Source of the DNA: Candidatus Omnitrophota bacterium
GTDB lineage: Bacteria; Omnitrophota; Gorgyraeia; Zapsychrales; Zapsychraceae
Assembly (NCBI GenBank): GCA_050250375.1
Contig: JBFWOS010000001.1
Location: forward strand, 219,346 to 283,345
Length of the DNA stretch: 64,000 nt
Direction: 5' to 3'
The position numbers and the translations under genes are program-made. The notes under the pieces are model-generated. The model was not told the origin of the DNA and made no database searches. It was given only the letters and a program-made list of their open reading frames with translations. Of this stretch, positions 25,563-51,717 are shown one piece after another; the stretch's first letter is position 1, and each line of letters starts with the position of its first letter.

Positions 25563-25653
25563 TGTGCGTTATTTTGATAAAGGGAACGGGTCAGCTCAAG
25601 CCTCTTCAATTTCCCTCTGTCCCTTTTCGGGGACTATCCCGTTCTCCTGATAT

Positions 25654-27904: not shown

Positions 27905-28162
27905 TTATTTAACTTCATCCAACAACAATTCATCTCCTCCCTGGCGTAAAATCCATCTTTTATGTTCAGGATCAACTTCATTCAATTCAATTTGAACCAA
28001 TCCATCTCCTCGGCGTTTTACACGATAAAAAATTAAAGGAACGGCCTCTCTTGTGGAACCAAAAGTGATTTCTGTATCATCTGAATATCCCTGAAGATCC
28101 TCTCTCAGCCTCCCTATAGTTATTCTGCTCTCTCTTTCTACCTGATCAGGATTCCTTTGCAT
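27905..28162 (-). CDS. Small hypothetical protein
   Basis: It is an 85-aa ORF. The overlapping ORF 27685-27981 contains a repeat fragment and is probably spurious. Confidence 0.3.
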   Translation of the reverse strand: MQRNPDQVERESRITIGRLREDLQGYSDDTEITFGSTREAVPLIFYRVKRRGDGLVQIELNEVDPEHKRWILRQGGDELLLDEVK

Positions 28163-28264: not shown

Positions 28265-28672
28265 TCAGTACGGGAACCGATAAATTTTTGCCACCCATCT
28301 TTCATCTGGTGTAAATTCTAACAATAATTCAGCATCAAGTTGAGGCGGCCTTAACCCATTCAGATCTATTGTGTCAACGTGCACTTGACCCTTCGAATCC
28401 CACCACGTATTTAAGTCCTCACTATACCACCAATGAATGCGCACTTCCTCGGGAAAGGGCATACGATACATAAATGAACCCGCTGAGGCCCCTGCAGTAA
28501 GAATCCCGCAGGGAGGCTCGTATTTAAATCCTTCCAGTTTTCGAACGACAATGTCGCGGGAACTCGCGTTTTGGATCTTGATATTTCCATTAAACGTACC
28601 ACAGCCGGTCAGCAAAAAAGTAGACAGCAAAAAGATGAACGTATGTTTGAATTCGACTTTCGTAATTTTCAT
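28265..28672 (-). CDS. Lipoprotein, hypothetical
   Basis: The internal start is MKITKVEFKHTFIFLLSTFLLTGC, which contains a lipobox. The conserved promoter motif lies immediately upstream at 28690-28740. Confidence 0.5.
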   Translation of the reverse strand: MKITKVEFKHTFIFLLSTFLLTGCGTFNGNIKIQNASSRDIVVRKLEGFKYEPPCGILTAGASAGSFMYRMPFPEEVRIHWWYSEDLNTWWDSKGQVHVDTIDLNGLRPPQLDAELLLEFTPDERWVAKIYRFPY

Positions 28673-28748
28673 AACGGGTATATTTTGAAAGCACCAAGAC
28701 AGGTCAAGCCCCTTCAATTTCCCTCTGTCCTTTTCTACTTTCTCCTAT

Positions 28749-29300
28749 TTATTTTTCTGATCGAAAAACTGCATTAGTTCCTTTATTTTTCATAGTCTTT
28801 AGCAAATTATATAAACTTTTTGTTTCCTTGTAATATTCAATATTGTCGAAGAACCAGGCACGGTGCATTTCTAATATATCGTTAACCCATGGTTCAAAAA
28901 AAGACCACCCTTCTTTTTTATATTCATTGTTAAAAAGATCTTCAATATAACCACCAACCCACCTAACATATACTTCATACTCTATTTTCTTATCACCTTG
29001 AAAGGAATTCATATAAGTTGATGTTTTTGTTTTATCATTAAATTCTGGGTATTTAATTGACTCTTTCATAATGTCATTCCATACGCTAGTTAGATACATA
29101 TACTTCGTGTTTTTAGCATTCTCTCTAACCTGATAACAAGTAAAAAAAAATCCAAATAAAGTTAGTATGATAAAAATGATTTTGTTGTTTTCATTGACCC
29201 AAGATATAAATTTTTTTTTAAATTTACAGAGAATAATGAATATGACTAGCACAATCATTATTAGACTTTCTAAAAGATAATTCTGAAGTATGTATAACAT
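28749..29300 (-). CDS. Membrane protein with two transmembrane helices plus a soluble domain, hypothetical (island-associated)
   Basis: The internal start MLYILQNYLL is the likely one. The gene is AT-rich. The conserved upstream motif lies at 29345-29400. Confidence 0.4.
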   Translation of the reverse strand: MLYILQNYLLESLIMIVLVIFIILCKFKKKFISWVNENNKIIFIILTLFGFFFTCYQVRENAKNTKYMYLTSVWNDIMKESIKYPEFNDKTKTSTYMNSFQGDKKIEYEVYVRWVGGYIEDLFNNEYKKEGWSFFEPWVNDILEMHRAWFFDNIEYYKETKSLYNLLKTMKNKGTNAVFRSEK

Positions 29301-29511
29301 AGCGGCCTCTTTCAAATCACATATTTTTAGATTTAATAGAAAGAAACGGAAACAGTTCAAACCTCGTCAATTTCCCTCTGTCGCATTTGGGGGACTATCA
29401 CATTCTCTGCAGTGACCTGGCACAACGGGCTAACCGTTTCCTTCTTCCTTCTTCTTACTTCCCTCTTTTAACCAATCCTTCCCGCCAATCAACCCGTCCT
29501 GTCCCGTTCTC

Positions 29512-32500
29512 TTATAAATTCTGATTCTTCGCCCACAACTCTTTCAAAAAATGTATCCCCCTCCGCCCGTAAGCATTACAGATCATATCGGCGTTTGTTT
29601 TGATAGATTTATCTTTCTCACCAACATTATAAAGGCGTTCAATGATGATCTTAATCTCTTGTTCTCGAAACATTGGCGTTGCGTACTCTAAAATTTTTAG
29701 AAATATATTACTTATACGCCTGACACTTTCCTCATCGGTAAATTTCGTCATATATTCAATCAGAAAACCAGAACGATGTTGAATTTCAATATACGGGGCC
29801 GATAGAATAATCCACTTTTCTGCGGATTCATCTATTCTATCGAGCCATATTGTCAACTCTGCCATTCGGCTTAGAAAAGAGCTGTATGCATCGCCTAATT
29901 TCTCTTTAACTTGCGCCTGCTCCTTATATGTCCACGCCCAGAAAGCCACGATTCTTTTTTTTATATCTTCTGATGGTTCATCTTGACTCTCCTTATCCTC
30001 TTTTCTTAAGGTCCTTGGAGATATTGACCAAAAAAAGCTAGCCACATCTTCCCATCGGCCTCGTTTATCATCCGCAGCATCATTAAGCATTTTCCAAAAT
30101 AAACTGTGCGTTCCGTCTTTATTATTTTCTGCCAACGCTTCATCCATCTGCAGATATCCGATGCAGATATGCTCAACGAGTCTTTCTTCTGTACGACCTT
30201 CAAATATTTTATTTTCAATAGCCTTTAAATAATTTAAACGCATCAACCCATATAAGTCCCTGTACACCCGAGACCCTGTTAAATATCCTTCCATGAACAT
30301 TTGCCATTCAAAATCATCAGAAGTTTTTTGAGCGAAAAATTTGATTTTCTCATCAACATACTCATTATCCAAATATCTCATCTGCGGCAAATAACAGCCA
30401 AACCAGATGTATCCATCAATGCCAATTGACAAAAATCTTTCAAACTTATCTGAACCCCAATTCTTTTGTTTCTTCTGAGTCGCCCTTGCCACCCTCAAAG
30501 AAAAAGAAACGTAAGTCATAACTGACCGGCCAAGGGTGGTATTAAGCGCATATGTAAGAGCGTCTCTTTGAGTGTCTGGATGCTTTTCTCCTTTTAGCAA
30601 AGGTATTATCAAATCGAATATCTGCTCGACTTTATCAAAATATTCAGGCAAAAAAGCCTTGTTATCATCTTTTGAACCATCTTCGATTAAATTAACAATA
30701 GCATCGATAATCCAGAGATATCTACCTTTCCCACTGTCTTCACCCTGGGCCTCAAGCGCCTCTTTTGTTATGTTGTCCTTACCTCGCTTAAGATATTCTA
30801 AATAAAAATCAAAAATCTTATTCCAGTCTAATTCTTTACCCGAGGCCCCAGCATCCTTCAATCCCCGTAAAATTCGATGCAAATAAAAATAATCCAAACC
30901 CACTAATGCCTCGAGTCCGTCTGTAAATTTCTTGGGTTCCTCTTTAACAGCAGCTTGCAAAGTATCGGCCAGACCTTCTTTATCGGGTTCCCCCTCAAAA
31001 ACACCATGCCAGAAGTCAGCACCTTTAAAATCCGCCAAATATTTGACTAATTCACCGATTGGCTTTTGAAGAATTTCCTCTTTAGTAACCGGTGATTTAT
31101 GGGTAATAAAGCCCCCTTTAAAAGATGATCGTTCTGGTTCGTATGGTTTGCCATCTTTTGGCTCAACTTTTTGCTTCGCCTGTTCATATAAAACGGAGAA
31201 ATCGGCGTTCTCCCTGAGAGGGGAAAGCCATTTATATTTCCAATAAGCAATTAACTTTTCATCTCCCTTTTTCAGATAATATTCGGGGACTTGGTTAATA
31301 AGTTCTTTAATCTTTGTCTTAATTTTGGGAGTAAAGGAAATGTTATGGTGTTGAAAAACATCCTGCGTCTCAACTTCAAGATCGGATTCCCCAAGAATTG
31401 TTGGAACAACTTCAAGCAATTTCTCCAACAGTTCGGAATAATCAGCCCAATATCTATCGGCACATATCAAGACAAACCGTCTAAATATGGGAAACTGAAA
31501 TTTATCAGTTAAAAATGTGTTTAATATCTCTCTGCCCCCGGCACGGTTTATCTCACATTTAACAAGCAAAACGTCTCGTAAAATATTCGTTAAGATTTCT
31601 TCGGCTCCATCGCCATTCTCAGGCCCGCTTTTTAAACTGCGGCACCATACATGGGAATAATCCGAGAAAAGCCCGGTATAGATGCTCGAAAGTTTATTTT
31701 CAAAGTTATCTGTACTCTGCCAATTTATATCTTTAGGCAATTTGCTTTTGAGTTCCGTGAGGAAAACATCTTTTGTTAAAGCGCTAAAGAAATATTGATT
31801 TATATCTGTTTCTGGATCGGCTTTATGGAGCGCCCAGAAATCTTGTCCACGGTCAATATTTCTTAACTGCTCATCTGAAAACTGTTTCACAACACACTGA
31901 TATTGTCCCTCTTGAAACCCGATCTGCCCGGGCTGTAATCCATCGATTGAAACACGCTCTACAGTAATCCGATAAACATTATTATCGACATCAAAATCAG
32001 AATAATGATTCTTCTGTTTATATTCCAATGCCCTCCTTAATCTTTCTGCCAGCCCAAGAACAACCTTGATGGAGCATTTTTTACCGATCAATTCACCATA
32101 TTTCTTGAAGGCATCCTGAATCCAATATGAATCCCAAGCCAACACAGCGTCATCTCGTCTGGTAAATGAGTATGATTTTCCTCCAGCTTTAATAGCCGTA
32201 ATTACCTCAATGATTGTTTCAGCAAAAGGATAATCAGGTGCAAAATCATCACTTAAAAATTTTGGCAAAAGTTTTTCGCCGATGTCACTTATCCCCATAT
32301 CATTCTTACTTGAATAATTCACCCAAACTGAAATCCAAGTATTAAATTTATCGATTTTGAGGTTATCTTTTATAACGGAGGATGGAAGATTTTTTAAAAT
32401 CTTAACAAAGTACCACCAAAAATGTGGATTGTTAATTGGCTTCCTATGTATGGTAAATTGAATAACATCATCAATAATTTTAATTAAATCCTTGCCATAT

Positions 32501-32775
32501 TTTGGCTGTTGACTCGCATGTCCAGAAACCTTCTCTAAATAATCAAGAACCCCCCAAAACAAAGCATTTCCTTTCACATCGAATGCGATTGTCTCTGGTT
32601 TAAAATAATTATTGTCTTGCATCCACTCGAACCAATCTAAAGAGGAAAGTTTATTTAAAAACTCTCGTTCCAAATCCTTGTCAGCACGCACCAGTAGCTT
32701 TAAACTTGCAGCGTTGGTGTCATTGTATTGTTGAATCAGGAATTCAATTTTTTCTAAATTTTGATAGTAACTCAT
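29512..32775 (-). CDS. Large (1087 aa) uncharacterised alpha-helical protein, translationally coupled to the upstream SIR2-family gene
   Basis: The ORF is 3.26 kb, unbroken and AT-rich. A GGTGA RBS lies 4 nt before the ATG and the gap to the SIR2 gene is 13 bp. No convincing catalytic motif is visible; AIKAGGKS is a weak P-loop-like match with no Walker B. Confidence 0.7.
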   Translation of the reverse strand: MSYYQNLEKIEFLIQQYNDTNAASLKLLVRADKDLEREFLNKLSSLDWFEWMQDNNYFKPETIAFDVKGNALFWGVLDYLEKVSGHASQQPKYGKDLIKIIDDVIQFTIHRKPINNPHFWWYFVKILKNLPSSVIKDNLKIDKFNTWISVWVNYSSKNDMGISDIGEKLLPKFLSDDFAPDYPFAETIIEVITAIKAGGKSYSFTRRDDAVLAWDSYWIQDAFKKYGELIGKKCSIKVVLGLAERLRRALEYKQKNHYSDFDVDNNVYRITVERVSIDGLQPGQIGFQEGQYQCVVKQFSDEQLRNIDRGQDFWALHKADPETDINQYFFSALTKDVFLTELKSKLPKDINWQSTDNFENKLSSIYTGLFSDYSHVWCRSLKSGPENGDGAEEILTNILRDVLLVKCEINRAGGREILNTFLTDKFQFPIFRRFVLICADRYWADYSELLEKLLEVVPTILGESDLEVETQDVFQHHNISFTPKIKTKIKELINQVPEYYLKKGDEKLIAYWKYKWLSPLRENADFSVLYEQAKQKVEPKDGKPYEPERSSFKGGFITHKSPVTKEEILQKPIGELVKYLADFKGADFWHGVFEGEPDKEGLADTLQAAVKEEPKKFTDGLEALVGLDYFYLHRILRGLKDAGASGKELDWNKIFDFYLEYLKRGKDNITKEALEAQGEDSGKGRYLWIIDAIVNLIEDGSKDDNKAFLPEYFDKVEQIFDLIIPLLKGEKHPDTQRDALTYALNTTLGRSVMTYVSFSLRVARATQKKQKNWGSDKFERFLSIGIDGYIWFGCYLPQMRYLDNEYVDEKIKFFAQKTSDDFEWQMFMEGYLTGSRVYRDLYGLMRLNYLKAIENKIFEGRTEERLVEHICIGYLQMDEALAENNKDGTHSLFWKMLNDAADDKRGRWEDVASFFWSISPRTLRKEDKESQDEPSEDIKKRIVAFWAWTYKEQAQVKEKLGDAYSSFLSRMAELTIWLDRIDESAEKWIILSAPYIEIQHRSGFLIEYMTKFTDEESVRRISNIFLKILEYATPMFREQEIKIIIERLYNVGEKDKSIKTNADMICNAYGRRGIHFLKELWAKNQNL

Positions 32776-32788
32776 AAATCACCTATTT

Positions 32789-33787
32789 CTATGATGGGGT
32801 ATAAGTGCTGCCCGCTAAACTTGTCGTTCTGGCCTCTAATAATTTGGCTAAAGTTTTGCATAAATCTTCTACGAAAATATGATCGCCTGTATATATCACT
32901 GGCTTAACATTCATTTGGCTATAATCATGAAAATATTTTTGCTGAAAATTCTCCTTTTGCTCTTCAGGAGCAGCTCCCAAATATTTATTAATTTCGGAAT
33001 CACTAGTTACCCAATAATGCATTTTAACTTCTCTTTTTGTCTCATTATCGGACTTACTACTATTTTCTTTTGCAATCTTAGCCAGTAAGTGTTTAAGAAA
33101 TGATCGCAAATGGAATTCCAAAGAGGACCCAAGAAAAATTATTGTGTAATTTGTCAAAATATCACACAAACTATTTTCTACGACGTAAACCCCATTATGC
33201 CTTTCATAAAGCGAAGGATAAAAATATTGATAATCTTTCTTTCGTAAAATACAAAATCCTGTGTTGGGATTGCCATGCAAATAAGTTAATGAATGTCTTG
33301 CCCTTTCTTGGGGTGGAAAGACAAAATAAAATTTCGTCAATTCTTCAGGCTTGGAACTTGTTAAATCTTGCTTCTGCCTAAATCCATCTTCAATTGGATC
33401 GTAATAGTTTGTTGTAACAAAACAATTAAAAGCACGAGCAATTTCAATATGAGTAGATGTATGCCTCGTATTTTTCGGAATTGTTTTAGTAAATAGCTCT
33501 TGATCAAATTTTTCCTTATCCTCAACATGCTTATATAAGACTCCGAATGCTTCCGGTGATTCACCATTACCATCGACTGAACACCCGTATTTTTCACACC
33601 AGGAAACATATAATCCTTTGAGATCAGGAACCCCTGTTATAGCCGAACTAATTCCGGCACCGATAAAAGCAACAAAGACATCAGGCGCTTTTGAATACAG
33701 TTCTAGCAAGGAACTGAAATTGTCCTTATTGACCTTAGAATTAAATAAAGCATCTTCCAATTTAGCTGCCATACTTATCCAAAACAC
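32789..33787 (-). CDS. SIR2_2-family (sirtuin-like, defence-associated type) protein
   Basis: Motifs FIGAGISSAITGVPD (GAGIS), FVTTNYYDPIE (TTNYD), TYLHGNPN (LHG) and IIFLGSSLEF (F.GYS-like) are present. Confidence 0.7.
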   Translation of the reverse strand: MFWISMAAKLEDALFNSKVNKDNFSSLLELYSKAPDVFVAFIGAGISSAITGVPDLKGLYVSWCEKYGCSVDGNGESPEAFGVLYKHVEDKEKFDQELFTKTIPKNTRHTSTHIEIARAFNCFVTTNYYDPIEDGFRQKQDLTSSKPEELTKFYFVFPPQERARHSLTYLHGNPNTGFCILRKKDYQYFYPSLYERHNGVYVVENSLCDILTNYTIIFLGSSLEFHLRSFLKHLLAKIAKENSSKSDNETKREVKMHYWVTSDSEINKYLGAAPEEQKENFQQKYFHDYSQMNVKPVIYTGDHIFVEDLCKTLAKLLEARTTSLAGSTYTPS

Positions 33788-33934
33788 CTCTGCGTCAGGG
33801 TGTTGAATTGGTTATAAATTTCAATATGACTTTCTATCATATTTTCGATCATCGTAACAGTAATCTTCGCAATGTAGAAAGAGAAGGGGCCAGTCCATAC
33901 CACTTCAATTTGCCTCCGTTCCCTTCTTCGGACT

Positions 33935-34816
33935 CTATATTACAAACCTTTTATCTATTTCTTGCATTCTTTTATTGTGATATTCTTTAAACCAAAACCA
34001 CTTATTCCAAATATCACGTTTTTTCTCCTTCTCGGAGCTTAATTCGTTTAACCTTTTTGAAATAATGTTATGGAAAGAATCTTTATTTGACGTATTTAAA
34101 TGTCCCTTAAAACAACTATCTATCAGTTCGGGAAGGTTTTTATAATACCCAGGGAAATGATAAATATCCAACACGTTTTCCCCATCAGCATCTGTCCAAA
34201 TTAACGAGTGATCCATCCACGCACAATCTTTCAACTTTTCATGTATTTTATCTGAAATAATTATTCTAGGCATGCGGGCATTCTTCTCCAGATTAAAGGC
34301 ATCAATTAAAGCCTGACTAAAAAGAAATTCACCCTTTATATCTTTGCCGAATGTACTGCAATGAAAATCTCCGTCCGCAATACCACCACGAGCCAATAAA
34401 TGTGTTTCACAAGTTAACATGAAAACTGTCATTGCTATATAATTTAGAAAAAACCTATAGTCGGTAACCGTGTGAATCTTAAGAATTTCCCTTTCTTGCT
34501 CTGCATTGTCAAAAGACTCAAACCCTATACTTCTTCTCGCCTCCAAATGATCACTTATTCTTTTACCCATGTCTAACCAAATTATCAAAGAATCGCTGAA
34601 CATAATAAACTCAACATCACTCATATCCATAACTAAATAGTCAGAAACTAGACGATATTCTTCTTTTTCGTGCCTGATAATATCATTGAGTTGTCCTCTT
34701 ACACTATCAAAAACTCCCTCCAATTTAATCTTAAACTCTGCCGCGGTCTGATTGGTTTTAACATATTCAGAAAATCCCAACAGGTCAATATAAGCTAATA
34801 TCACTTTTTTATTCAT
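33935..34816 (-). CDS. Hypothetical protein with a possible palm-domain nucleotidyl-cyclase-like core (tentative)
   Basis: VILAYIDLLGFSEYV resembles the class III cyclase metal-binding motif F.DI.GFT. IMFSDSLII resembles the second Asp block. RGGIADGDF...GEFLFSQALIDAFNLE resembles the C-terminal half. Confidence 0.45.
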   Translation of the reverse strand: MNKKVILAYIDLLGFSEYVKTNQTAAEFKIKLEGVFDSVRGQLNDIIRHEKEEYRLVSDYLVMDMSDVEFIMFSDSLIIWLDMGKRISDHLEARRSIGFESFDNAEQEREILKIHTVTDYRFFLNYIAMTVFMLTCETHLLARGGIADGDFHCSTFGKDIKGEFLFSQALIDAFNLEKNARMPRIIISDKIHEKLKDCAWMDHSLIWTDADGENVLDIYHFPGYYKNLPELIDSCFKGHLNTSNKDSFHNIISKRLNELSSEKEKKRDIWNKWFWFKEYHNKRMQEIDKRFVI

Positions 34817-34845
34817 ATTATCCGTTCAAGGGGTTCAGACCCATT

Positions 34846-35904
34846 TCACACTCGACTGGCATACCCCTTCTCCAACAACAAATTATTCAAATAAACATCC
34901 GTCGCCGGATCTGGTTCTTTTCCCTGCGGGATGAAGACGTCCGCGAGGTAGCGGTCGTATTTGTCGGCTTTGCTGGAGCGCAGGATGATAAGCGACGCTT
35001 CTTTGAGGAGCGAACGCACGAATGTTTTGGCGGCGTCGCCTTCTTTGGTCCCCGCCTCGGGGCAGTCGATATCGCGCAGGCGAAGGACCTCCCGGTGCCA
35101 GCTTAAAAAGCCCAGGTCGACGCGCACTTTAAGAGTGTCGCCGTCCACCACCTTCTCTATATAGGCACGGTAGGTGAACAGGTCTTTGGCGGTGCGCTCA
35201 CCCGCGGAAAATGTGTAGTCGCCGTTTTTGGGGCGCGACTCAACGATCGCCTCATCCGCGAACCGTGCCGAGACGCGGGGGTCGATGTCCCGAAACACCC
35301 CGAAGCCCTGGTCCAGGAGCAAGGCGCGCGCCTCGGGGTTGTCGCCCAGGGCCGGCCTCGACACAAAGCGGTAGGTGTAAAGCGTGCCGCGGGAAGGGGT
35401 CAAGGGAGCATTTGGCCGGCCGTAATGCGCCGGCTCTTCTGAACGGACCAGGGCCCCCTCCCCTGACGGGCGAATCTTGACCCGCGCCTGCAGTTCCTTG
35501 GATGACCAGCCGTTTCGCCCGGCTTTCTCCTCGATCAACAGACGTTCCTTGTCATCAGGGATGGCCATCAGCTGGCGGTAATGGCTCCAGGTGAATTGGT
35601 GCCCCGGGGCACCAATTGGCGGACTGGCATAGGTCCGGGCAAACTTAAAACAGCGGTTCAGCAAGGTCTTATCGACGCCGAGGTCACGGGCAAGACGGGC
35701 GATCACTTCAACTCCATAATCCGCGCGGTCTTTATTTTTAAGGATATGCGTGTGGATGATCCGTCCGGTTTCCCAGTACGTGCGCACGCGCTCCTGTTCG
35801 ATGCGGGCCTGGCCCTCGAGCAGGGTCTTTTCCACCTGTTTGAGCAGGGACCGGTAATTGGATGCTTGAATTGTGGTGGTTTTTGAGGACATATCCCTTA
35901 TCAC
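34846..35904 (-). CDS. Nuclease with a C-terminal SNase (thermonuclease) domain and an N-terminal YhcG/DUF1016-like region
   Basis: LRLRDIDCPE...DKYDRYLADVF...NNLLLEKGYA is the SNase pattern. The gene is GC-rich, unlike the adjacent island. Confidence 0.6.
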   Translation of the reverse strand: MIRDMSSKTTTIQASNYRSLLKQVEKTLLEGQARIEQERVRTYWETGRIIHTHILKNKDRADYGVEVIARLARDLGVDKTLLNRCFKFARTYASPPIGAPGHQFTWSHYRQLMAIPDDKERLLIEEKAGRNGWSSKELQARVKIRPSGEGALVRSEEPAHYGRPNAPLTPSRGTLYTYRFVSRPALGDNPEARALLLDQGFGVFRDIDPRVSARFADEAIVESRPKNGDYTFSAGERTAKDLFTYRAYIEKVVDGDTLKVRVDLGFLSWHREVLRLRDIDCPEAGTKEGDAAKTFVRSLLKEASLIILRSSKADKYDRYLADVFIPQGKEPDPATDVYLNNLLLEKGYASRV

Positions 35905-38873: not shown

Positions 38874-39035
38874 ATCCCCTCCTTAAAATAAAAAACTCCC
38901 ACAATCGGATTTCCGTTGCAGGAGTCATCGGCCCCTTCATGAGCGGGCGGTTAAAGGCGAACTCCATCGCCTCAAATCGTTTAGTTGTTAGAAGTCTACC
39001 CCAAGAAACCCCGGCCGTCAAGTCCGCCGATCAAT

Positions 39036-50466: not shown

Positions 50467-50798
50467 TTAAAAATTCTTCCTTTTGATCTGATCCCTTTGT
50501 CACATTTGGTTGCTGTCTTATAGTGATTACAAACCAGAAGCATTGCTTAATATTATCTTTTGTTTCAATAGTATACGTTGTATGCAAATTGTAGCAAGTC
50601 AAAAGTTACCAGAACATGGCAATATACTTTATTATGCAATCACACTTATCCCCTTTTCAAGTTGTCAATTTGGTATCTTAAATAAAAAATCCGAAAGCAA
50701 AGTGTTCGCTGAATTTTAGCTGTCAAAAAGAAAGCCGTTGTAACTCATTGAGCTACAACGGCTTATAAAACTCCCCCGCGAGGACTCGAACCTCGGAC

Positions 50799-51428
50799 CC
50801 AGTGGTTACGATCTGACTTCAGTTACCTGAAGAGTCGGACTTTCTCTTCACCGATCATTTCTGATTACGGCGGCGGGTGTAAAGTCTCTGCACTTGCCCT
50901 CCCCGCCACATTGTTTCGCTTTGCTTAAACATGCGAAACAGCGGGGATGCTAGCTCAGGATTGTCCCCAGCGTTTTGATTTGTTTGACTCATCAAAACGA
51001 ATCCGTGGGGATTTCCCTGATTTAGCCCGCTTTTCACTCTGGTGTTTCCACCAGAGGCTGCTAACTTTGAGCATGAAGTTCACGGTGACAGTTCGCGCAT
51101 AACATAATGCACTTATCCAATTCTGCCTTAACTTTATTCCAGCTTCGGGTATACCCTTTTGCGGAAATCGTAAAGTCTTTCTGAACCGGATCAATGTGAT
51201 GAAATTCCAGCGCATCTATACAACGATCATAACCGCAGCGTTCGCATTTCCCACCTTTATATGTCACCGCCATTGCACGTATTTTCTTTCTTCGTGCGTA
51301 AACGGCTTTAATGAGATACTCGCGCCGATCTTTGTATGTACGTTTGTCTTTCTTCACCCGATCACCCCCCTCATGCTTTTGTGTCAATTGAGACACTCGC
51401 CTTGTCTGTTTACAGACAAGGCTCGTGA
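50799..51428 (-). mobile_element. Putative group I intron in tRNA-Asn, inserted between positions 35 and 36 and carrying an HNH ORF
   Basis: Exon 1 ends in U and the intron ends in G, which is the group I rule. GNRA-capped hairpins occur near the 3' end, for example GACUCUUCAG-GUAA-CUGAAGUC. An ORF sits in a 5'-peripheral region and is followed by about 260 nt of structured core. Confidence 0.45.
51061..51396 (-). CDS. HNH homing-type endonuclease
   Basis: CERCGYDRCIDALEFHHIDPV...LCANCH is the HNH signature with zinc-binding Cys pairs. It lies inside the tRNA intervening sequence. Confidence 0.7.
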   Translation of the reverse strand: MSQLTQKHEGGDRVKKDKRTYKDRREYLIKAVYARRKKIRAMAVTYKGGKCERCGYDRCIDALEFHHIDPVQKDFTISAKGYTRSWNKVKAELDKCIMLCANCHRELHAQS

Positions 51429-51717
51429 ACAGCCACTTGCTCTACCAACTGAGCTACAGGGGAATAAATCTGTAAATTTTTTTAAAGAACAACTTCCCCT
51501 GGATTCCATGATTCTTAAGGGAAAATCCGTGCGGGGGAACGCAACCTGTTTGACAGGAATATAATCACAAGATTATATCTAAATACTCTGAAAAGTCAAC
51601 TGTCTAATTCAGACAAAATGACCGGCCATGAAGGCTGCCCTTTATTCCAGATTTTGTTTGGCAATCCCGCCCGCCTGCTTTACAATATGACCATTAATCT
51701 TATAAAATAAATTTCAT

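Follow-up and report, generated by a model that had tools for sequence, protein, structure and literature searches.

The stretch of Candidatus Omnitrophota DNA analysed here (the window, 64,000 nucleotides long) contains an AT-rich block in which a gene for a predicted SIR2_2 NADase is followed, on the same strand, by an open reading frame (ORF) of 1087 amino acids (aa). In an earlier note, made from the sequence alone, this pair was put forward as a new coupling of a defence-type SIR2 protein with an unrecognised partner. The present analysis suggests that the partner is a sensor of the type found in DSR1 (defence-associated sirtuin 1, reportedly the system of Gao et al. 2020 and Garb et al. 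2022), encoded separately from its effector. The features of the pair, and the block that contains it, are as follows.

32789..33772, minus strand: predicted SIR2_2 NADase effector gene, 327 aa from the ATG at 33772
32776..32788, minus strand: spacer of 13 nucleotides (nt) between the SIR2 stop codon (TAG) and the sensor ATG, with a GGTGA ribosome-binding site, read directly in the sequence
29512..32775, minus strand: putative DSR1-type helical-repeat sensor gene, 1087 aa, corresponding to the whole of DSR1 beyond its SIR2 domain
28749..34840, no strand: AT-rich block, comprising the SIR2-sensor operon, a 293-aa cyclase-fold gene and a gene for a 203-aa protein with two transmembrane (TM) segments (TM203), delimited by the G+C content of each gene

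Both ORFs, the ORF upstream of them and the small genes downstream are present on the minus strand as the earlier note described, and the 13-bp gap and GGTGA site that it reported are indeed there. As listed, the SIR2 ORF (32789-33787) runs to a GTG at 33787, whereas its homologues begin at the place of the ATG at 33772, as does the identical protein in the NCBI annotation. The SIR2 and sensor ORFs are in different frames, the SIR2 TAG being followed by the 13 nt that include GGTGA and then by the sensor ATG; read-through therefore cannot join them. The G+C contents of the genes in the block are 0.27 (TM203), 0.38 (sensor), 0.35 (SIR2) and 0.34 (293-aa gene), compared with 0.59 for the nuclease gene carrying DUF1016_N and SNase domains, 0.55 for lpxL (Lip_A_acyltrans) and 0.47 for the whole window. 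Values in the right flank (nuclease, next ORF and lpxL) are 0.55-0.61 and in the left flank 0.44, against 0.27-0.38 within the block, whose right edge is abrupt, at about position 34,850. The contrast with the nuclease and lpxL genes that had been noticed earlier thus holds. Flanking direct repeats of the target-site duplication type were sought around the SIR2-sensor cassette, and none was found.

The SIR2 protein and its partner

The SIR2 protein carries the motifs GAGIS at residue 43, TTNY at 125, LHG at 170 and FLGSS at 218, and is matched by Pfam SIR2_2 above the cut-off (E=3.2e-9). Among the signatures listed in the earlier note, GAGIS, LHG and F.GSS stand, and the one given as TTNYD in fact reads TTNYYD. 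In an alignment of 24 sequences that includes both SIR2 clades discussed below as well as fused forms, residues G43, G45, T126, N127, H171, F218 and G220 are invariant, so that the GAG loop and the catalytic Asn127 and His171 are kept in the window protein. A profile of the SIR2 family matched the solved SIR2 domains of ThsA, DSR2, KomC and FAM118B in the PDB (DSR2 chains at E=2e-21), and in the profile alignment the invariant residues line up with the TTN and HG motifs of ThsA. Judged from its residues, the protein is a SIR2_2 of the defence type with a predicted intact active site, as had been proposed. Its best PADLOC match is the SIR2 region of ThsA1 (3.9e-8), ending at model position 289 of 478. 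Homologues in a collection of 5.8 billion proteins form 15 clusters, all of 273-333 aa and with SIR2_2 as their only Pfam domain, and the window protein would accordingly seem to fall in a small divergent clade, distinct from the SIR2 of the Dsr1 models.

The 1087-aa protein has no match in Pfam or NCBIfam, and PHROGs returned only noise. The earlier statement that it has no recognisable domain is thus right for Pfam and NCBIfam and wrong for PADLOC, in which the Dsr1 model PDLC04166 is matched at E=3.3e-101, residues 339-1085 falling on positions 513-1225 of 1227. The same model is matched at E=0 from position 6 to about 1224 by fused relatives of about 1230 aa (L050 and L055). The alignment of the window protein with the fused L055 protein is collinear, residues 4-299 falling on 293-582 and residues 360-1086 on 542-1233 (4e-78 and 9e-14), and the 1087-aa protein therefore appears to be everything in DSR1 that follows the SIR2 domain. 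Furthermore, fused 'SIR2 family proteins' from Bacillus plasmids, pXO1 included, are homologous to it over residues 39-1085, and such a protein from a B. mycoides plasmid matches PDLC04166 at 6.5e-159. Homologues of the sensor are 45-69% identical to it over the full length and fall into about 95 protein clusters.

The predicted fold of the sensor is an alpha-solenoid, broken at residues ~251-345 (window 31741-32025, minus strand) by a beta-rich stretch of about 95 aa. All of the close sensor clade and a few distant relatives have this insert; in the alignment, the fused SIR2 relative P0101 lacks it, as do two of the three TIR-fused relatives and some others. The insert might form a trigger-binding surface specific to its lineage. 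With regard to a partner of the SIR2-HerA kind, the sensor has no ATPase match in Pfam or PADLOC; the only loose match to [AG]xxxxGK[ST] is AIKAGGKS at residue 194, which borders a low-confidence loop of the model. Nor do Pfam and PADLOC give a TIR hit, or Pfam a PIWI domain, in agreement with the earlier remark that the partner lacks clear Walker A/B, TIR and PIWI features.

The earlier note had itself named a DSR-type partner as the finding that would undo its claim of a new pairing. Since the large protein would be the sensor moiety of DSR1, by its PADLOC Dsr1 match and its collinearity with residues 293-1233 of a fused DSR1, the central claim of novelty fails, and the locus is better regarded as a probable variant of a known defence system.

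Split genes and exchangeable effectors

One genome per species was scanned, and 80 loci were collected by similarity to the window sensor. From each locus the ORF bearing the match and its upstream neighbour were extracted; neighbours were assigned by hidden Markov models (HMMs), and Pfam and clustering served to sort the N-terminal extensions. In 40 of the 43 assessable loci with an effector-less sensor, the gene directly upstream, on the same strand, is a SIR2_2 gene. The spacing between the two genes ranges from -44 to +43 nt and is most commonly -4, a 4-bp ATGA overlap (19 of 43 loci). Two of the three loci without an upstream SIR2_2 gene (L030 and L065) are visibly frameshifted, with matches spread over two frames. 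The recurrence of the split in 40 of 43 loci therefore marks it as a conserved architecture and not a frameshift.

Where the division falls can be seen in L001, in which the SIR2 gene corresponds to positions 6-283 of the Dsr1 model and the sensor gene to positions 519-1225. Alignment of the junctions places the break in the interdomain linker, at two distinct places. In the window and in L008, L028, L046, L024, L007, L009, L018 and L029, a linker helix (YYQNLEKIEFLI in the window) opens the sensor protein; in L001, L004, L013, L016, L033, L035, L003, L012, L054, L060 and L076, the homologous helix (FYGFNQIIEKNL in L001) closes the SIR2 protein. Two break positions speak for more than one fission (or fusion) event and against a sequencing artefact.

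Among the sampled relatives the split form is the commonest architecture. It was found in metagenome-assembled genomes (MAGs) and single-cell genomes of many phyla, among them Omnitrophota, Planctomycetota, Nitrospirota, Patescibacteria and several archaeal groups; at least one carrier, Thermosulfurimonas (L049), is a cultured isolate. The patchy phyletic distribution of the sensor relatives suggests horizontal transfer. A SIR2 gene of the window type, followed with a 4-bp overlap by a gene for a partner of about 1090 aa, also occurs in contigs L084, L086, L087 and L088, which are neighbourhoods of three SIR2 clusters. The L088 pair adjoins a type I restriction-modification system and GmrSD, and the L086 pair adjoins an integrase, a HEPN/NTase pair and a helicase plus methyltransferase. 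The coupling of SIR2 and partner proposed in the earlier note is in this way seen to be conserved, and to occur in defence islands elsewhere.

The closest relatives of the window sensor (L001-L007, 61-65% identity) pair with a SIR2 of the Dsr1 type. Over its first 50 residues, the window sensor is 50% identical to that of L008, whose SIR2 belongs to the same clade as that of the window, and 14-28% identical to those of L001, L003, L004 and L007, which have Dsr1-type SIR2. Beyond these 50 residues, a segment-wise comparison with L001, L003, L004, L007 and L008 gives mostly 44-90% identity. Because identity breaks within the first 50 residues according to SIR2 clade, it appears that a divergent SIR2 took the place of the Dsr1-type one and brought along the first ~40 codons of the sensor gene. 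If the SIR2 gene was exchanged along with the 5' end of the sensor gene, the N-terminal helices of the sensor are likely to be a docking element for SIR2.

Other effectors are found on the same sensor. In eight loci the sensor has an N-terminal TIR fusion, and in four of these (L019, L023, L042 and L049) a SIR2 gene of the Dsr1 type is kept upstream. These four loci thus combine one sensor with two NAD-consuming effector types, a gene pairing that resembles Thoeris and has no SLOG domain. A PIN_12 domain is fused to the sensor N-terminus in L044. An unannotated, helical N-terminal domain of about 145 aa is found in eight more loci (L002, L005, L010, L011, L014, L039, L041 and L077) and on sensor homologues of 1220-1250 aa (e.g. 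P0007 and P0015); it is possibly a small nuclease-like effector. The conserved motifs of this domain are HxAREIxGGxRD and HKYAHRxGxWK, and neither Pfam nor PADLOC matches it. Sensors that carry it are up to 64-66% identical to the window sensor, and in L002 and L005 the gene adjoins a type I restriction R subunit. The SIR2, TIR, PIN and ~145-aa fusions agree with published work in which the Dsr1/Avs7 sensor is described as a module whose effectors can be exchanged.

Interpretation and rival explanations

We consider it probable (about 0.8) that the locus encodes a two-gene, or 'split', DSR1-type defence-associated sirtuin system, in which a stand-alone SIR2 NADase works with a helical-repeat sensor and in which a SIR2 of a divergent clade has been swapped in. 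Produced from one operon, the two proteins would assemble into a complex by way of the linker helices that open the sensor. The sensor may then bind a phage structural protein, and this binding would release or assemble the SIR2 NADase. Depletion of NAD+, demonstrated for fused DSR1 and DSR2 and assumed here by analogy, would finally stop phage replication. The identity of the trigger is the weakest step of this scheme. Fused DSR1 protects against phage and causes NAD+ to fall in the course of infection (bioRxiv 10.1101/2021.12.14.472415). What triggers the sensor of EcDsr1 is the major capsid protein of the phage, disruption of the effector abolishes defence, and the Dsr1/Avs7 sensor family carries exchangeable effectors, 'split proteins' being mentioned as well (PMC12803255, PMC13581612).

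In common with DSR1, the window pair has an NADase-type SIR2_2 effector with the catalytic Asn and His, a sensor whose homology to that of DSR1 extends over its full length (PDLC04166), and the module order SIR2, linker helix, sensor. It differs from DSR1 in consisting of two polypeptides instead of one, in having a SIR2 from a clade other than that of the Dsr1 models, and in the extra beta-rich insert of its sensor, which is absent from the fused relatives aligned. DSR2 is composed of SIR2, MID and an alpha-solenoid C-terminal domain, senses the phage tail tube protein, and forms tetramers of a single polypeptide. By analogy, the window system may resemble DSR2 in that a large alpha-solenoid would bind a structural protein of the phage and govern a SIR2 NADase; however, the window sensor has no sequence similarity to the DSR2 chains in the PDB. 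The short pAgo system SPARSA (SIR2-APAZ plus pAgo) is a family of SIR2-effector defence systems that exists both fused and as two adjacent genes, and its sensor is an Argonaute that uses nucleic-acid guides. In contrast, Pfam finds no PIWI or APAZ domain in the window pair. Like the carriers of Avs7/Dsr1-type sensors (PMC12803255, PMC13581612), the window system shows a single sensor family joined to exchangeable effectors; unlike Avs7, it has no STAND NTPase module.

Several results weigh against a split DSR1-type system. Neither the single sensor protein nor a 32-sequence profile of its family finds a match at E<=1 in a PDB sequence search, and fold searches with the sensor model return only generic solenoids. 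The fused L055 protein matches the other two PADLOC Dsr1 models weakly (9e-22 and 7e-9), and it is through these matches that the sub-model PDLC04166 is linked to the experimentally characterised EcDsr1, a connection that is accordingly indirect as far as the sequences go. The window SIR2 matches no PADLOC Dsr1 model, an HMM built from the SIR2 domains of fused DSR1 does not match it even at E<=10, and in a pairwise comparison it shares 23% identity with the SIR2 domain of one fused DSR1 (E=1e-3); gene order is therefore the one line of evidence that bears on physical coupling between SIR2 and sensor. Finally, a capsid-protein trigger may not carry over to the distant sensor subfamily of the window.

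Since the two ORFs are jointly collinear with a single fused protein elsewhere, they might be the remains of a non-functional DSR1 gene broken by a frameshift, a nonsense mutation or an assembly error. We regard such decay as very improbable, because neither ORF is interrupted and the sensor gene begins at an ATG with a ribosome-binding site of its own, the same split with proper starts recurs in 40 of 43 loci across many phyla, the sensor is conserved over its full length across the ~95 clusters mentioned above, and the catalytic residues of the SIR2 protein are invariant; moreover, the truly frameshifted copies, L030 and L065, look different. The SIR2 domain taken by itself points elsewhere, since its closest counterparts by PADLOC and by PDB profile are those of ThsA (SIR2-SLOG), and the protein might then be a Thoeris-like or other SIR2 activated by a small molecule, the large protein having some other role. 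At 327-332 aa, with a ThsA1 match that stops at position 289 of 478, the SIR2 protein is however too short for a SLOG, Macro or other ligand-binding domain. A scan of eight ORFs of the block and its flanks gave no ThsB/TIR gene, and the partner would be a protein sensor of DSR1 and not a second-messenger module. This reading is a shade less credible than decay. We give just as little weight to a housekeeping pair, such as a protein deacylase with a helical scaffold protein. SIR2 domains in general do include deacetylases, but that of the window belongs to the defence-type SIR2_2 proteins and is closest, among solved structures, to the defence NADase effectors ThsA, DSR2 and KomC together with vertebrate FAM118B; the pair adjoins defence or mobile-element genes in L088 and L086; its composition is atypical for the genome region; and the patchy distribution already described suggests horizontal transfer.

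The remaining alternative involves the genes around the pair, which are listed here with a repeat found in front of several of them.

33935-34816, minus strand: 293-aa cyclase-fold ORF (ORF list)
28749-29360, minus strand: 203-aa protein with two TM segments, TM203 (ORF list)
28265-28717, minus strand: 150-aa lipoprotein-like ORF (ORF list)
25591-25621, minus strand: promoter-like repeat, directly upstream of a 157-aa ORF
28699-28729, minus strand: promoter-like repeat, directly upstream of the lipoprotein-like ORF
29352-29382, minus strand: promoter-like repeat, directly upstream of TM203
33890-33920, minus strand: promoter-like repeat, directly upstream of SIR2

The system might comprise three or four genes, a nucleotide signal made by the 293-aa cyclase-like protein controlling the SIR2-sensor pair or acting on TM203. 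All four genes lie within one AT-rich block. The 293-aa protein is confidently predicted to fold as a class III nucleotidyl cyclase (predicted local distance difference test, 89.8; the top 50 Foldseek hits in the PDB are all adenylyl or guanylyl cyclases), in keeping with the palm/cyclase-like character ascribed to it in the earlier note, and in a 50-sequence alignment D11, G14, D75 and G144 are invariant and R143 nearly so. Furthermore, its closest homologue (L081) is followed by a 292-aa protein with two TM segments, and one family member (L091) by a CAP12/Pycsar-type TIR protein. On the other side, a tblastn search with the 293-aa, 203-aa and 150-aa proteins finds nothing in the 80 sensor loci, and the genes called beside the pair in L084-L088 differ from those of the window, so that the three-gene cassette envisaged earlier finds no counterpart in the related loci or in the contigs added later. 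In another Omnitrophota MAG, the gene for the closest homologue of the 293-aa protein (67% identity) adjoins unrelated genes, with neither SIR2 nor sensor, and it alone is common to the two regions. A metagenome scan for the cyclase-like family gave only two loci, in neither of which a co-directional partner gene adjoins the cyclase-like gene. No PADLOC model, those of Pycsar included, matches the 293-aa protein, its gene lacks the promoter-like repeat common to the SIR2 operon, TM203 and the lipoprotein gene, and some 150-160 nt separate it from SIR2. A system of three or four genes is therefore unlikely, though slightly less so than the other rivals, and from these comparisons the 293-aa gene and TM203 seem to be neighbours unrelated to the SIR2-sensor operon.

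If the locus is a split DSR1-type system, an annotation rule based on a single gene could miss it, the sensor corresponding to the C-terminal ~60-75% of the PADLOC Dsr1 model and the SIR2 protein going unmatched. A split DSR1 would also provide an experimental handle on how a helical sensor switches a SIR2 NADase, its parts being open to separate expression, mixing and swapping. An apparent natural swap exists already, in that two SIR2 clades are exchanged along with ~40 N-terminal sensor residues and two fission points are known. No new kind of immune mechanism is added, since the modularity of the sensor and split forms are already in the literature (PMC13581612).

Neighbouring genes and other features of the window

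The family of the 293-aa protein consists of about 150 clusters of stand-alone proteins, mostly of 200-350 aa, that belong to no Pfam family; Guanylate_cyc of Pfam is weakly matched by 6 of the 50 members aligned. An effector-like gene stands next to the cyclase-like gene in two of about six informative contexts, and otherwise no co-directional gene lies directly downstream. The 293-aa gene is best regarded as separate from the SIR2-sensor pair and is possibly itself related to defence. It is improbable, to about the same degree as the larger system discussed above, that the cyclase-like protein is functionally tied to its neighbours in the block, whether by signalling to the SIR2-sensor pair or as a Pycsar-like cyclase that was parted from a TM203 effector when the split-DSR1 cassette was inserted. 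If it were so, nucleotide signalling would be linked to a DSR-type sensor, and the repeat before SIR2, TM203, the lipoprotein gene and the 157-aa ORF would mark one regulon.

This repeat came to light in a direct-repeat search around the SIR2-sensor cassette. It is ~31-60 nt long, with the consensus GACAGAGGGAAATTGAAGrGGCTTGAcCTG, and its 15-nt core has four hits compared with 0.38 expected by chance. A TTGAC-like hexamer lies within it, and an A/T-rich hexamer 17 nt further on. No further copy occurs elsewhere in the window, in any of the 97 fetched loci or in viral contigs. Probably it is a common promoter or operator, and the copy at 33890..33920, which precedes the SIR2 ATG by 118 nt, may be where the two-gene operon is controlled. 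A reading of the repeat as an RNA structure was rejected, as it folds no better than shuffled sequences.

Outside the block, the GC-rich gene with DUF1016_N and SNase domains (34846-35904, minus strand) matched many PADLOC models of the phage-defence candidate 'PDC-S02' (best E=1.3e-22), and a candidate defence gene therefore abuts the block. A match to a phage family was seen near the block in one case only, that of an 85-aa ORF at 27905-28162 (minus strand) to phrog_21180, of unknown function (E=1.8e-9). PADLOC gave nothing significant for the unclassified ORFs at 18.7-26.3 kb. Further away, a tRNA-Asn(GUU) gene at 50771-51463 (minus strand) has its anticodon loop split by a 620-nt group I intron, the 5' exon being 51463-51428, the intron 51427-50808 and the 3' exon 50807-50771. 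Within the intron, an ORF for an HNH endonuclease precedes the Rfam RF00028 core (65.5 bits), and ARAGORN detects the tRNA only once the intron has been spliced out in silico. A fluoride riboswitch (Rfam RF01734) lies at 38912-38980 (minus strand), with a score of 55.2 bits against a gathering score of 34.

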